From: Eledone cirrhosa
Taxonomy: Eukaryota
Direction of reading: 5' to 3'
Assembly: GCA_964016885.1 (NCBI GenBank)
Contig: OZ024741.1
Location: forward strand, 321,160,001-321,224,000
Length of the DNA: 64,000 nucleotides
This document shows positions 4,427 through 61,504 of this stretch, in pieces (within the stretch, counting starts at the first letter, position 1; every line of letters begins with the position of its first letter). Made by a program: the position numbers and the translations under genes. The notes beneath the pieces were generated by a model that saw nothing but the letters and a program-made list of their open reading frames with translations, did not search any database and was not told where the DNA came from.

Positions 4427-4468
4427 ACCACTGACGATGTTGCAGATGTGCAACGAAAGAACTTTGAT
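4427..4468 (+). ncRNA. Hammerhead-like motif in Naiad-like pseudo-LTR
   Basis: CTGACGA-T-GTTGC/GCAAC-GAAA-G-AA-C-TT; stem I weak (CA/TG). Copies at 40047-40088 and inverted near 39830-39870. Confidence 0.5.
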
Positions 4469-4771
4469 AGACTATATATATGTGTTTGTGTCTATATTGT
4501 GTCTGTATTTTTCACCGTTGGTCAGTCAATGGCAACATTGAGGACCGAATAAATTAAATTAACCGATATAAAAGACACAGAAGCGAAAAGTGAAAACCAA
4601 CCAAACAGTGAGTGTGTTCTGTTATTAATTCTGGCAATATTACACAAATATGACCCTCCCCATATATATATACGTATATATATATATATATATATATATA
4701 TATATATATATATATATATATATATATATATATATATATATATATATATATATATATATATATATATATAT

Positions 4772-5189
4772 AAATAAAGATCCGAAGGCATGGTATAAAT
4801 TTCCAATCATTTTAATCACGACACATGTTTCAATAAGAGATAGATCGATCGTGTAGCCATATGAGGGACTAAACTCTGTGAGTGAACACCGTTAATTTTC
4901 TCCCTCATATCAAGGATTTGAAGACAATTCATTTTCACCTGACGAGATCAGTGATAATCGATCATGGCTACACGATCGATCTATCTCTTATTGAAACATG
5001 TGTCGTGATTAAAATGATTGGAAATTTATACCATGCTTTCAAATCTTTATTTTGATACAAATACTCCGTTTTACATCATCTAGCTGTTTCCACAAATGGA
5101 ATTGGTGACATACGAAAGCGTGGAGAACTTAATATTGCTAACAAAAATTTATTGGACCGTTTGACACAACCAATAATACACCCTACAAT
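4772..5189 (+). mobile_element. Fold-back PLE pseudo-LTR in (TA)n
   Basis: 4772-4860 is the reverse complement of about 4964-5052; both ends in (TA)n. Confidence 0.75.
4935..5008 (+). ncRNA. Type I hammerhead ribozyme
   Basis: Stem I TCAC/GTGA, core CTGACGA, long stem II, GAAA, ACATGT palindrome, GUC site. Confidence 0.8.
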
Positions 5190-5213
5190 ATATATATATA
5201 TATATATATATAT

Positions 5214-7208
5214 TGAGTATATGTTGGTTGTATACCAACATCTCAGTATGCAGATTGGAGAACTCGGCGAAGTGTGCAGGTTGGTTTGGTTACTCCGGAG
5301 TAATGTAAAATAAAATAAAATAAATAAGTCAAATGTTTAATATTTGGCTTAGTTTATTACTGCTATATATATTTCGGTGACAGCCATCTTTGGCTGTAAC
5401 CTCTTCAGGCAGTCCGAATTAGTGTGGTAGAGACGAGTACACATGTTGTTGAGGTGTATAACTTTGTCAATACTCTGATATGCCCAGTTCCTGGTTGGGT
5501 TGTTATTTCACTGAGGAACTGGAATCATATGAATTCAAACCTGATTCCGACCTGATCTGGAAGCCTAAGCTGGACAGGTCCCCGTACTCTCTGGTCTGGT
5601 CCATAATCAGGAAAGTACCACCCGATAAAGGGGGATCTTGCATATGCAAACTATGTCTGAACGAGACCCTCGAGATACTAAGAGGTGGAAGCGGCCTGAT
5701 AAACCTCAGAACAGACTTCTTCGGGACATGCAGACACCTCAGGGCCGGGACCTTCCTCAAGATATATGGACAGTAGCAGCACAATAAGATGTGAACTCCC
5801 TTCAAGCTATAGGGACTTCTCCAGAACATGTAGACACCTCTCGGCCAAACCTCCCTCAAGATATATGGGCAGTAACACCATAGGTTAGGAACTCCCCTCA
5901 AGCCATAGGGACCAAACCAGGCTTAGCAGACACCATAATAGCCTAGAGATTGATTCTGACACAGCCTTTATAATTTGGCCAACATATTTATAACACACAC
6001 ACATTTTAATTTACCTGATTTTTGATTTTTCAATTTTGATTTCTCATTATTCATTTGTTTTCTTCACTTTATCACCTTATATTTATATTTAAGTTGAGAT
6101 TGGTTATAACACACACATTTTATTTGATTATCCTATTTAGTTTTATTCTTTTACCATCTTGTTCCTCCTACCACTCTATCCAACATATTTCTGACCTTGA
6201 GATTGGTTATAGCACACACAGATTTTATCTTATTTTATTCGAATCTTCATTTTATTTTTCACTTTTCATTTTCATTTTTCATTTTCCATATTCATTTTTC
6301 ATTACTTTTTCATTACCTTTTCATTAATTTTTCATTTATTCTCTATCTATTATTTATTTTCTGTTTACTTCTTCATTTTATTGCCTTCTATTTCTTCATA
6401 TACATGGCAGAACCCCCACCACCACCACCACCACCACCACCACCACCACCACGGGAAATGGTGGCAGGTGGGATGAAGAAACACACACAGATACTTCTAA
6501 ATTGTCAGCACCAGCAAGACATAAGCTGACCACAACACCAACAACACTACCAAAATAAGGGTAGAGGTCTGAGGTACTTAACAATAGCAAACACAAACAC
6601 TACAGGGAGCCTCACCCCAGAAAGAATTTCTATAGACTTTGGACTGAGGAATGCTCTCAAAACTGACCAATGGGAAGTTTGACCTTACAAATCTTTATAA
6701 CATTGAGATGGGTATAACACACATACACATTTTATTTTATGTTGTTCCTTTACCATCTTATTCCTTCTACCACTTTATCACTTTTTATTTTGAGCTGACT
6801 CCAACAATAACACCACTACCAACACAATAATAGAGGTCAGATGTACCTAACAATAAAAAGAACAACAACTACAGATTGGCTTGCCTCAGACGAATTTCTA
6901 TAGACTTTTGACTGAGGAATGTTCTAACAACTGACCAATGAGAGGAGAAGAGGCCATTTGACGCTGAAATTCGTTTGTTTGAATTCATATGATTCCAGTT
7001 CCTCAGTGAAATAACAACCCAACCAGGAACTGGGCATATCAGAGTATAGACAAAGTTATACACCTCAACAACATGTGTACTCGTCTCTACCACACTAATT
7101 CGGACTGCCTGAAGAGGTCACAGCCAAAGATAGCTGCCACCGAAATATATATAGCAGTAATAAACGAAGCCAAATTTTAAACATTTGACTTATTTATTTT
7201 ATTTTATT
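5214..7208 (+). mobile_element. Hydra-clade-like PLE 3' fragment with inverted pseudo-LTR
   Basis: About 5311-5533 is the reverse complement of about 6980-7205; 5540-5776 encodes WSIIRK...CKLCLNE...IN.R....CRH, homologous to the C-terminus of ORF 30859-31440; (TA)n both sides. Confidence 0.8.
7104..7158 (+). ncRNA. Type I hammerhead ribozyme (inverted copy 5359-5413)
   Basis: ACTGC-CTGAAGA-GGT..CAGC/GCTG..ACC-GAAA-TATATA-TA-GCAGT, followed directly by AATAAA. Confidence 0.85.
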
Positions 7209-7790
7209 TTATATATATATATATATGTATATATATATATATATATATATATATATATATATATATATATATATATATATATATATATATATATATATAT
7301 ATATATATATATATATAAATGTCAGTATGTATGTATACGTACATACATATATGTATACAGACGTACAGTAGCATGTATATATATATATATACATACAGGC
7401 ACACATATATATATGCACGTATCAGTTTACCGAACATTTATTATAATGTTCGCTTTGTTCATTTGTAAACAAACGAACAGCCTAATTTACGCCGTACAGT
7501 GTTTAGGCAAGCACATCACCTTTTTGTTCAACACTGACACAGGAACGATGTACTAGTTTCAAGCTTGTTAGCTATCGTCATCACCGTATACCTTACTGTC
7601 AGATGGTTGAACGTCCGAAAGTATATACTTTCCTTATGAAAATTAACGGCTGAGCAGCCTAATTTGCATATCGAGTGAGTTCAGTCGGCCAGGCGCACCG
7701 AAAACGATAAATGGAATAGAATGAAATGAAATTTCATTTCTCACTCTGAGTACGGCACTTACTTAAATATAAGTATGTATGTATACGTAC

Positions 7791-8202
7791 ATGGTGGCTG
7801 CCAACTCGTTTTCGAGTACGGCCACTACTTTATATCCATGTAGGAGAACCCCTACCGATGCGCTGAACGAGTGTGACTTTTTAGTCCAGCCAGCGACTTG
7901 AAAACTCTGGTACAAACACTACACCTGTGACAATTATTGACACACAGTGCTGGGCCCATGGTACCATGTGATGACAAGTGCAGAGAGATCTCCAGATATA
8001 AAGCAATGCCTGTGCCATGAAGCTTTTATAGTGAGCAAAGGCATTGCACAAAGCCAGTCCCACTCTCTTAACCAAGATGTTATTTACCAAAAAGAAGAAC
8101 AAGTCAACATCATTGGATACCATCAGGGTTGCAGGTGTTATATCAGAGTTTTCCTTCTCCTAGAATTCTGCCTTGACAAAGGCTAAGGGGTCATCTCTCC
8201 CG
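7791..8202 (-). mobile_element. Non-autonomous RTE-derived element
   Basis: Near-identical to 44702-45115 and 45138-45550; minus strand carries CTAGGAGAAGGAAAACTC, recognised from RTE 5' UTRs. Confidence 0.65.
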
Positions 8203-59713: not shown

Positions 59714-60120
59714 ACCAATAAATGTAATGAAGGAGTAACCAATCGTCCTTGTTATTCTTTCTATATATATATAGATAGAGATAGATAGATAGATAGATAG
59801 ATAGATAGATAGATAGATAGATAGATAGATAGATAGATAGATATATGTATGTATATATATATATATGTGGGGGGGTGTACATATATGTATATTTCCATCG
59901 CTTACATTTGTTCATGTACGTATACATGTGAGGAAAGAAGCATGCTGAGCAGCTGCTTATTCGTCAACTTATAAATTAATGAATGTGTTTTATGTATGGT
60001 CAAATATAAAAACAGTCAAACGTTAACTGATTGAGCATTCCATATATATATATATAAAATATATGTTATTTAACAAGATGGGATTATACGTTTCACTTAA
60101 TGTCTGTAAATATTAATATA

Positions 60121-60357
60121 TGTGTGTGTGTGTGTGTGTGTGTGTGTGTGTGTGTGTGTGTGTGTGTGTGTGTGTGTGTGTGTGTGTGTGTGTGTGTGTG
60201 TGTGTGTGTGTGTGTGTGTGTGTGTGTGTGTGTGTGTGTGTGTGTGTGTGTGTGTGTGTGTGTGCGTGCGTGTGTGCGTGTGTGCGTGTGTGTGTGTGTG
60301 TGTGTGTGTGTGTGTGTGTGTGTGTGTGTGTGTGTGTGTGTGTGTGTGTGTGTGTGT
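60121..60357. repeat. (GT)n microsatellite
   Basis: Directly visible; source of (CV)n ORFs. Confidence 0.95.
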
Positions 60358-60555
60358 ATACGTATTAGTGTGTCTGTGGGCGATATATATATATATATAG
60401 AAAACTAAAGAATAATACGCTTATCTATTGCAACCTTCTTGGAAGAGAAATGTGCCAGTGTAGATAATTGGTTGCTGTTATACAGATGTGTATGGTCTAG
60501 TTTGATTCGAAGCATTACAATACTGATAGGATATATATATTCGTAGAATCGAGAC

Positions 60556-60644
60556 GTATCTGAGGACCTTGCGATTTCAGAGTCAGGTTCGATCATTACA
60601 TCGATCGTGGCTCGAGCTGGTCGCCAGAGAAACGATTGTAATAT
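60556..60644 (+). ncRNA. Type I hammerhead in (TA)n-flanked element 60400-60692
   Basis: GTAT-CTGAGGA-..GCGA/TCGC..-GAAA-CGATTG-TA-ATAT, AATAAA at 60648. Confidence 0.7.
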
Positions 60645-60876
60645 TCTAATAAATTGTATTCGTCGCAACACTGATTCTCCGTTTCTTATGTGATATATAT
60701 ATATATATATATATATATATATATATATATATATATATATATATATATGTAGGAGGTGAGTTTTATTGTAGTACAATAAAGCAATGCAGATATCGGATAA
60801 GAAGCACTCTACAGTTTGTAGGACTGGAGTATACATAATATATAAGATCAAAAGATGGTTAAAAGAGTTCCATGTA

Positions 60877-60943
60877 TTTTATTATGCGCATTTCAAAAAC
60901 AAATATCATCATGCAATAATAATTGTGTTTTCATCAGATAAAA
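60877..60943 (-). ncRNA. Type I hammerhead in fold-back element 60750-61033
   Basis: TTTTAT-CTGATGA-AAAC..GTTT-GAAA-TGCGCA-TA-ATAAAA; arms about 60833-60887 and 60982-61035 are inverted. Confidence 0.8.
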
Positions 60944-61504
60944 TAGGAAGACATGATATGAAGGTTAAAAAATACTTGTGAGCATAATAAAATACATGGA
61001 ACTCTTTTAACCATCTTTTGATCTTATATATTATATATATATATATATATATATATACGTATCTGTGTTTGTGCATAGAACAACAAAAAAGCAGTAGTCA
61101 GGTGTAGGTAGATAGTTAGTTCATTGTTTTGCGATCGTTTCAGATGGTCGATTGATCGATGGAGATCGATTTATCCACTAGCATGGTAGTGGTTAAGTTA
61201 CTACCTATTTCTAGTCTCGAAATCCCTGTTCAATCAGCCGTCCTCCTCATAATCACTAAACTGATCAGAAGTCCGAATCTCGCTGCAACCATCTTCCCAA
61301 GAAAACATTGAGTTCTAACGTTATCAGCCCCACAACAACCAGGTGAATTACTATATATATATATATATATAATATATATATATATATATGTATATATATA
61401 TATATATATATATATATATATATATATATAGAGAGAGAGAGAGAGAGAGAGAGAGAGAGAGAGAGAGAGAGAGAGAGAGAGAGAGAGAGAGAGAGAGAGG
61501 GGGG

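Follow-up and report, generated by a model that had tools for sequence, protein, structure and literature searches.

Hammerhead ribozyme motifs in (TA)n tracts of an Eledone cirrhosa contig are probably the 3′ ends of many Penelope-like element families

We analysed a stretch of 64,000 nt from Eledone cirrhosa (contig OZ024741.1 of assembly GCA_964016885.1, positions 321,160,001 to 321,224,000 of the forward strand), which is called the window below and carries numerous type I hammerhead ribozyme (HHR) motifs. The window has 35% G+C and 104 rows of tandem repeats, and its host assembly comprises 3.0 Gb. With a probability of roughly 85%, the motifs represent the 3′ ends, or pseudo-long terminal repeats (pLTRs), of many families of Penelope-like elements (PLEs), mostly from the Hydra clade, plus a few likely retrozymes, piled up in (TA)n. 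This is a known kind of system, and its added value lies in scale, structural range and families with variant catalytic cores.

Intact Hammerhead Motifs in the Window

An earlier note on this DNA had named 14 sites and claimed about 15 mostly unrelated ribozyme families. All 14 coordinates correspond to helix I of a type I HHR motif, in which helix I is followed by CUGANGA, helix II, GAAA, a short helix III that is in most cases palindromic, UH, and finally helix I′. The core is intact in 12 of them; the two members of the 7546/8406 pair (family F4) have one differing core change each (AUGACGA and CUGACGG), and other F4 copies show an intact core. We counted 17 mutually unrelated motif families (F1 to F17), decayed and variant copies with genome relatives included, and blastn among the 17 motifs returned a single 21-nt match, located in the 3′ flanks. 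Families beyond the examples of the note include 31826/28939 (F6, with a U3-A8 core), 38813, 39376 and 59631. An intact or U3-A8 core was present in at least one copy of the 14 families other than F11, F12 and F16. The features of the window are as follows (ORF, open reading frame; RT, reverse transcriptase; numbers with L denote genome loci):

F1: 2208..4169, plus strand, broken ORF of the parent PLE, RT followed by GIY-YIG with a CX4CX2C linker, predicted Neptune/Nematis-type; 4427..4468, plus strand, HHR-like motif in the pLTR, CUGACGA, weak helix I; foldback 39619-40299 with further motif copies at 39830-39871 (minus) and 40047-40088 (plus).
F2: 4935..5008, plus strand, HHR, CUGACGA, 47-nt helix II segment; inverted partial copy 4777-4860.
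F3: 5303..7214, plus strand, element with HHR in the inverted arm at 5359-5413 (minus) and HHR at 7104-7158 (plus); GIY-YIG C-terminus at 5546-5755, then 3′ untranslated region.
F4: 7373..8619, inverted pair of minimal HHRs at 7545-7587 (minus) and 8405-8447 (plus), U.U mismatch at the helix II base; elsewhere tandem units near 465 bp, retrozyme-like.
F5: 26359..28772, plus strand, 5′-truncated Hydra-like PLE, GIY-YIG 27042-27745; HHRs in the inverted arm at 26583-26690 (minus), with tail, and at 28608-28715 (plus), 81-nt helix II segment.
F6: 28791..32100, plus strand, Hydra-clade PLE, broken ORF 29104-31440; HHRs in the inverted arm at 28844-28947 (minus) and at 31818-31921 (plus), U3-A8 core UUGAAAA.
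F7: 33504..33546, minus strand, minimal HHR within a short foldback element; a second, decayed copy lies near 32768-32865 (minus).
F8: 32977..33011, plus strand, minimal HHR with G5C in the window copy; intact relative in sample locus L082.
F9: 33898..33969, plus strand, HHR with G8A in the window copy; relative L343 has CUGACGA.
F10: 37862..38566, inverted pair of HHRs at 37905-37984 (minus) and 38444-38523 (plus), 50-nt helix II segment; 472-bp tandem elsewhere.
F11: 38767..38821, minus strand, HHR, family core CCGAAGA (U4C), window copy CAGAAGA; pLTR of a Hydra-like PLE (loci L307, L308).
F12: 39371..39421, plus strand, HHR, family-fixed CAGAAGA (U4A), hairpin helix III; other window copies at 39181-39231 (minus), about 32329-32379 (plus) and about 35765-35815 (minus); pLTR of a Hydra-like PLE (locus L315).
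F13: 40338..41317, plus strand, retrozyme-like insertion with an inverted 135-nt piece and 1.6 units of a 521-522-bp tandem; HHRs at 40661-40740 and 41182-41261; (TA)n at both ends of the insertion.
F14: 60556..60644, plus strand, HHR with a helix II segment of 62 nt; in L305 a GIY-YIG C-terminus lies about 1.9 kb upstream.
F15: 60875..60945, minus strand, HHR from a superfamily for which an exact pattern matched 78,782 times; L313 and L314 have a Hydra-like ORF upstream.
F16: 59513..59761, plus strand, pLTR fragment, HHR frame 59627-59713, family-fixed CCGUCGA (U4C plus A6U), G10.1-C11.1, GAAA, palindrome CGCGCG, UC; full-length Hydra-like parents L403 and L407.
F17: 61126..61254, minus strand, decayed HHR, 102-nt helix II segment; anchored relatives have CUGANGA in 5 of 6 cases and UA at the cleavage site in 6 of 6.

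A descriptor that allows a long helix II gave 10 matches in the window, compared to means of 0.07 in 100 global and 0.24 in 100 local (300-nt) dinucleotide shuffles. A refined descriptor found 12 intact-core motifs, while 25 local shuffles of the window contained 0.28 on average and 2 at most, and the reversed window contained none. In the shuffle comparison that the earlier note had proposed as a check, the motif frequency was far above the control. The heptamer CUGANGA alone was weakly enriched (34 versus 23.4 expected). Both descriptors overlooked the F5 motifs at 26686/28612 because of a bulge at the start of helix II; these motifs are clear by eye and folding.

If the motifs were chance folds in AT-rich, palindrome-rich repeat DNA, shuffled sequence should yield them too, and as soon as core mismatches are allowed false matches do appear (49 real versus 24.8 shuffled; 9 versus 3-10 in a two-mismatch scan for more variant cores). 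The intact-core counts contradict this explanation (12 versus 0.28 in the window, 69 versus 3.0 in the genome sample described below, 0 in reversed sequence, 78,782 versus 0 for the exact F15 superfamily pattern), as does covariation. The shuffle and reverse controls refute the chance-fold explanation, and we give it next to no weight.

The motifs are confined to four clusters, and between 9.2 and 26.3 kb and between 41.5 and 59.5 kb of the window there is no motif with family support. The statement that nearly every island of 200-1000 bp carries a ribozyme went too far: a motif was present in 16 of 23 islands, or 18 of 23 once 59631 and 61250 were added. A look-alike at 15416 was dropped, being single-copy. 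CUGANGA at 864, 890, 5511/7006, 6644/6912, 12629, 22986, 31897/28868, 34174, 42836, 46999, 49148, 56086, 61541 and 62419 is not part of an HHR by either descriptor, and the one-mismatch matches at 25677, 25712, 31303, 37010, 62311 and 63704 were taken as background.

Covariation, Folding and Rfam

Among 18 distinct sequences of the F15 superfamily, 98.4% of the cells were paired (slid controls: 34-63%) and helices I to III were supported. Two-sided changes occurred in 8 of 17 pairs, the helix III palindrome among them, and the covariation score was reached by none of 500 shuffles. Fold z-scores of six motifs ranged from −3.5 to +0.8. Columns 25/54 of the alignment (A1) hold an invariant C that faces C or U and breaks helix II, so that 0 of the 18 sequences are paired at this position; the mismatch may mark a tertiary or protein contact.

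The covariance-model check that had been suggested for the motifs turned out negative: Rfam returned no hammerhead at gathering score for the window and six loci, and no hammerhead among the matches with E ≤ 10 in two sub-regions of the window, where the list was filled by matches of microRNA models to microsatellites and foldbacks.

Linkage of the Motifs to PLE Reading Frames

Genome searches covered 10-30 loci per family for 15 families, F3 and F8 being left out. In nine families (F1, F3, F5, F6, F11, F12, F14, F15 and F16) a sense GIY-YIG ORF lies 0.3-2.7 kb upstream of the motif. For F3 and F6 this linkage is visible within the window; in F1 an endonuclease piece in sense orientation precedes the motif in 10 of 17 anchored loci, the window included; F5 has a sense PLE ORF in 10 of 30 loci, and F12 in 6 of 27 anchored loci, with RT plus endonuclease in L315. 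Linkage was seen in extended loci for F11, F14 and F15, and in the full-length elements L403 and L407 for F16. Complete pLTR-ORF-pLTR units are present in L314 and L403. The marks of endonuclease-bearing PLEs are all there, namely a pLTR with a sense HHR, partial tandems, an inverted 5′ copy, an optional tail and insertion into (TA)n. This supports the proposal of the earlier note that the motifs are PLE-type type I HHRs relying on PLE machinery.

Pfam detected no RT or GIY-YIG family in seven window ORFs, and the ORFs were therefore identified by motifs and homologs. ORF 29104-31440 shows the Hydra-clade marks RVRWKT, NKT (DKT in four relatives), CNCHLPETC, CPLC and CQH; the main window ORF has a homolog in the octopod Argonauta hians (42% identity). 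Seven other families match ORF 29104-31440 or its homologs by tblastn, and by these marks and similarities eight of the nine ORF-bearing families are assigned to the Hydra clade, seven of them by tblastn similarity. F1, the ninth, is predicted to be Neptune/Nematis-type.

It is improbable, in our estimate, that the families are mainly independent non-autonomous elements (retrozymes or short interspersed nuclear element (SINE)-like elements) borrowing PLE enzymes. Such elements would explain why a sense ORF piece is missing within 2.5 kb of 49 of the 58 sampled motifs (9 of 58 have one upstream, and 6 of 58 an antisense piece), and why 10 of 24 F13 loci contain tandems of about 522 bp, which reach four HHR units (window pair 40666/41187), with further arrays in L044 and L408. 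They would not explain that 9 of 17 families run into their own PLE ORF and that the length of upstream sequence which copies have in common grades continuously, as is typical of 5′ truncation. The suggestion of a separate class of small ribozyme elements consequently fails for most families, as 9 of 17 are 3′ ends of ORF-bearing PLEs, and homology-based repeat annotation would capture these as PLE fragments. The suggestion of a mobilome that ORF-based annotation misses survives to the extent that most copies lack a nearby ORF and that Rfam is blind to them.

Retrozymes probably account for three families. ORF-less tandems were found in F13, F4 (about 465 bp, 4 of 24 loci) and F10 (about 472 bp, 2 of 24 loci), and no ORF-bearing element with the same 3′ end was found for these families in 24 loci each or in a few extensions. 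F4, F10 and F13 are likely ORF-less tandem retrozymes, and only these three look non-autonomous. More retrozyme-like arrays lie at L408:124-1310, L408:3754-5155 and L044:8630-9683; the units of the L408 and L044 arrays measure 593 bp (with a U3-A8 core), 467 bp and 311 bp (with an inverted copy). Copies of F7 (window 33480-33680, loci L322-L341) are often short foldbacks resembling miniature inverted-repeat transposable elements, in a set that is biased by the palindromic query; their inversion point lies inside or just before HHR helix I.

Insertion into (TA)n Tracts

A TA/GA tract follows within 300 nt downstream in 59 of 68 sampled motifs, compared to 25.8% of random positions, and HHR copies end at 106 of 423 long (TA)n tracts sampled. 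The nesting in (TA)n and (GA)n tracts claimed earlier was right for (TA)n; the (GA)n part is minor except in F11, and (GA)n was rejected as a general target, since 11 of 12 families end in TA. Measured from the cleavage site, the next microsatellite lay at two modal distances in each of 12 families examined, for example 58/229 nt (F5), 25/115 nt (F12), 56/178 nt (F13), 45/134 nt (F15) and 57/187 nt (F6). The two clusters of 3′ ends are 54-174 nt apart in 11 families and 21 nt apart in F4. In the full-length F16 element L403 the stretch between both ends (the tail) continues into the ORF start. The window copy of F13 has (TA)n on both sides; its inverted 135-nt piece stops at the far site and its 1.6 tandem units stop at the near site. 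An inverted partner was present for 18 of 69 sampled motifs. The (TA)n tracts that separate PLE ends include the longest ones, of up to about 355 bp (window 32648-33475 and other clusters).

PLE ends likely pile up because the endonuclease appears to nick (TA)n and most insertions stop early. As suggested by PMC11167929 and PMC8557442, the RT-endonuclease would nick AT-rich DNA, and reverse transcription would be primed at either of two internal RNA sites, giving two ends and a tail (PMC11167929). Early stops and strand switches would leave the HHR-bearing end, often with an inverted twin, and fresh insertions entering the same tract would build the clusters. In a tandem transcript the palindromic helix III may pair two HHRs for a dimeric and probably protein-assisted cut (compare PMC4209133 and PMC7229834), which could trim the precursor or, in F4, F10 and F13, free a monomer or circle of 465-522 nt.

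Several points weigh against assigning the motifs to ribozyme-bearing PLE ends. The ribozyme step is predicted from the DNA sequence. The covariation set consists of 18 related sequences of the F15 superfamily only, chosen by our own descriptor, and in 7 of 500 shuffles at least as many pairs changed on both sides. The monomer fold is frequently not the one of minimum energy (0-12 kcal/mol above the minimum). As to the elements, parents of F2, F7, F9 and F17 were sought in the genome loci and none was found, which with F8 (not searched) makes five families without a parent. For F4, F10 and F13, non-autonomy was judged from 24 loci per family with flanks of 1.5 kb and from a few extensions of 8 kb; short tandems also occur in the ORF-bearing F5 (4 of 30 loci). 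The 3′ end was taken as the first downstream microsatellite, and an internal tract could mimic such an end (F4, F11).

Abundance in the Genome

The genome was sampled by 59 stretches of 10 kb (590 kb) at round coordinates of large contigs, small contigs being excluded. The sample contained 69 intact-core motifs, compared to 3.0 in five shuffles and 0 in reversed sequence, which corresponds to 112 per Mb net and extrapolates to 3.4×10^5 intact-core motifs in the genome (bootstrap 2.3-4.5×10^5). For the F15 superfamily the sample forecast was about 112,000 (22 matches), while 78,782 exact matches were counted in the whole genome (reversed pattern: 0); rescaling gives a total of about 2.4×10^5. 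For F12 the forecast was about 25,000 and the count 21,341. Four exact patterns, three of which run from helix I through the core no further than the start of helix II, jointly gave 104,627 genome matches. Counting by homology, with a library partly drawn from the same sample, gave 115 copies in 590 kb. The genome holds >100,000 counted copies and likely about 300,000 overall. At 80% identity the sampled motifs fall into 34 families (Chao1 62), a few false matches being expected, and 13 of 69 have helix II segments of 50-97 nt. The window is not special within the genome: the chance of drawing at least 12 motifs in 64 kb from the sample is 0.12.

If the Schistosoma genome is near 0.4 Gb, the motif density here is comparable to that of Schistosoma. 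Counts reported in the literature are >6,000 for coral, about 5,000 for mussel and up to 120,000 for axolotl, about 9,000 for Xenopus and about 38,500 for Schistosoma (PMC2770079). The total in E. cirrhosa exceeds the published counts compared (axolotl, Schistosoma, Xenopus), as given in the available text of these papers.

Families with Variant Catalytic Cores

The consensus type I core is not the family core of F11, F12 and F16, and all three have ORF-bearing copies. In F11, 99 of the first 100 matches (4,140 in total) carry U4C, F12 has U4A in 21,341 copies versus 93 with U4, and F16 has CCGUCGA (U4C+A6U) in 364 copies versus 3 with CCGACGA and 0 with CUGANGA. Both pLTRs of the full-length F16 element L403 read CCGCCGA, while position 6 is U in most copies. 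No second canonical HHR was found inside the F11, F12 and F16 elements scanned. All three families keep the helices, GAAA, the palindrome and UH. Among the three, F12 has the weakest fold (z +0.83, with a helix II of 3 bp), but its layout is like that of Hydra HHRs in File S2 of PMC8557442. F6 differs in another way, with U3-A8 in 19 of 19 anchored copies, a covariation that is already published and reported as active (PMC3088659, PMC4209133).

Core positions diverged at 29 of 2,882 letters, compared to 456 of 33,095 elsewhere (best-hit copies, 11 families). Single genomic copies decay about neutrally, so conservation acts between lineages, and selection on individual copies found no support among these best-hit copies.

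As the altered-core families were amplified, fast self-cutting is likely not needed for jumping, judged from the sequences. The cut would be helpful but not rate-limiting, because the U4A, U4C and U4C+A6U families still amplified. A stronger claim, which we put forward tentatively and at clearly less than even odds, is that in at least two autonomous lineages (U4A; U4C plus loss of A6) the predicted catalysis was lost and the fold kept, within a population of about 300,000 motifs and at least 60 lineages. If true, this would be natural genetic proof of the hammerhead as a protein-binding or dimerisation element, with cleavage dispensable for retrotransposition in vivo. The role of HHRs in endonuclease-bearing PLEs is stated as unclear in PMC8557442, and HHR-dead mutants still insert in vitro (PMC11167929).

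The U4A and U4C+A6U cores could also be working variants that cut well in their natural ribonucleoprotein, with cleavage staying essential. The kept helices, GAAA, palindrome and UH of the three families fit with this, as do the tolerance of U4C in vivo in a viroid and the activity of U3-A8 (PMC3088659), and the HHR of an anole PLE needs its protein for cutting (PMC11167929). However, position 6 of F16 varies (U mostly, C in both L403 pLTRs), which looks like relaxed constraint, A6C cuts at <0.1 per minute (PMC3088659), and insertion in vitro was not reduced in the HHR-dead mutants (PMC11167929). Considering both sides, we regard well-cutting variants as rather unlikely.

With the natural core variants described by Perreault et al. 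(2011, PMC3088659) the families share U3-A8, the U10.1.U11.1 mismatch, U4C (in a viroid) and A6C of low activity. 'U4A' does not occur in the text of that paper and U4C+A6U was not found there, although its Figure 5 or supplements may differ. The variants there are rare single examples, whereas those found here are fixed in whole families, with copy numbers from hundreds to tens of thousands. File S2 of PMC8557442 has no U4 or A6 variants. Since families with variant cores occur beside relatives with intact cores in one genome, the role of the HHR becomes directly testable.

Comparison with Known Systems

Earlier work has described HHRs at PLE ends with a palindromic helix III, pairs on opposite strands and the presence of many families in one genome (PMC4209133, PMC7229834, PMC8557442), and (TA)n targeting by the Hydra clade as well as an octopus Hydra element with an HHR (Hydra-1_Obim, Octopus bimaculoides) were described by Craig et al. 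(2021, PMC8557442). The elements analysed here agree with Hydra-clade PLEs of that paper in the motifs RWK, DKT, CxCX5C, CxxC and CxH, in (TA)n insertion, in a sense HHR near the 3′ end with palindromic helix III, in inverted 5′-truncated copies, and in the U.U or other mismatch at the helix II base. They differ in number, with one octopus Hydra family there and eight linked families in the window, in helix II segments (up to about 26 nt by our own count of the Hydra rows there, up to 102 nt here) and in tails (30-40 bp there, mostly 54-174 nt here). The structure space of the HHR is thereby widened to helix II segments of 27-102 nt, which Rfam missed here.

PMC4209133 likewise reports numerous families in one genome, a majority of single motifs derived from truncated PLEs, U3-A8 covariation, opposite-strand pairs 100-700 bp apart and palindromic helix III, and it proposes dimeric cleavage with low activity. 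It gives 2,000-9,000 motifs per genome and helix II of 7-8 bp, compared to >10^5 counted here and 13 of 69 helix II segments of 50-97 nt.

Non-LTR retrozymes (Cervera and de la Pena 2020, PMC7229834; LTR, long terminal repeat) likewise consist of ORF-less tandem units with a type I HHR each, as in F13 (522 bp), F4 (near 465 bp) and F10 (472 bp), and their PLE origin and mobilisation have been proposed (PMC7229834; Li et al., bioRxiv 10.64898/2026.07.22.740005). The F13 array adds the marks of PLE insertion, with two fixed 3′ ends, an inverted 5′ piece and (TA)n ends. This signature speaks to the mechanism, not to the phylogeny.

The Poseidon element PAc of Anolis (Frangione et al. 2024, PMC11167929) shares two RT start sites bounding an optional tail, AT-rich targets and an HHR upstream of the start sites. 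It belongs to another clade and has a short tail, and the proof there is in vitro, while the evidence here consists of genomic signatures.

In a repeat annotation of O. vulgaris from 2026, 31 PLE families are given as recently active, and its available text makes no mention of ribozymes (PMC13282606). We found no report of such abundance in a cephalopod or of family-fixed U4A or U4C+A6U cores, though supplements could record U4 or long-helix variants, and neither long helix II (to 102 nt) nor long tails in the Hydra clade were found in the accessible text of the published PLE and hammerhead literature.

Other Repeats in the Window

A 436-bp tandem dimer (94% identity), followed by a 3′ part that ends in (ACAT)n, occupies positions 44692-45750; this repeat had no Rfam match. 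Relatives lie at 7790-8200, 34087-34680 and 21120-21590, and one of them sits inside the F4 element. The relative at 34174 contains CUGAAGA...GAAA without a full HHR. The repeat is probably a SINE or the 3′ part of a long interspersed nuclear element family.

Another repeat, starting GGCGGTG...GGCAGTATCGGTAGAG, occurs at 1455-1815, 24087-24471, 42140-42460, 47750-47930 and 58240-58640 and presumably resembles tRNA-derived octopus SINEs. By eye, 63740-64000 (plus strand) may start another PLE RT fragment, where tblastn with the PLE pieces of the window gave no match, and 56480-57700 (minus strand) has the look of a decayed non-LTR (RTE-like) reverse transcriptase.

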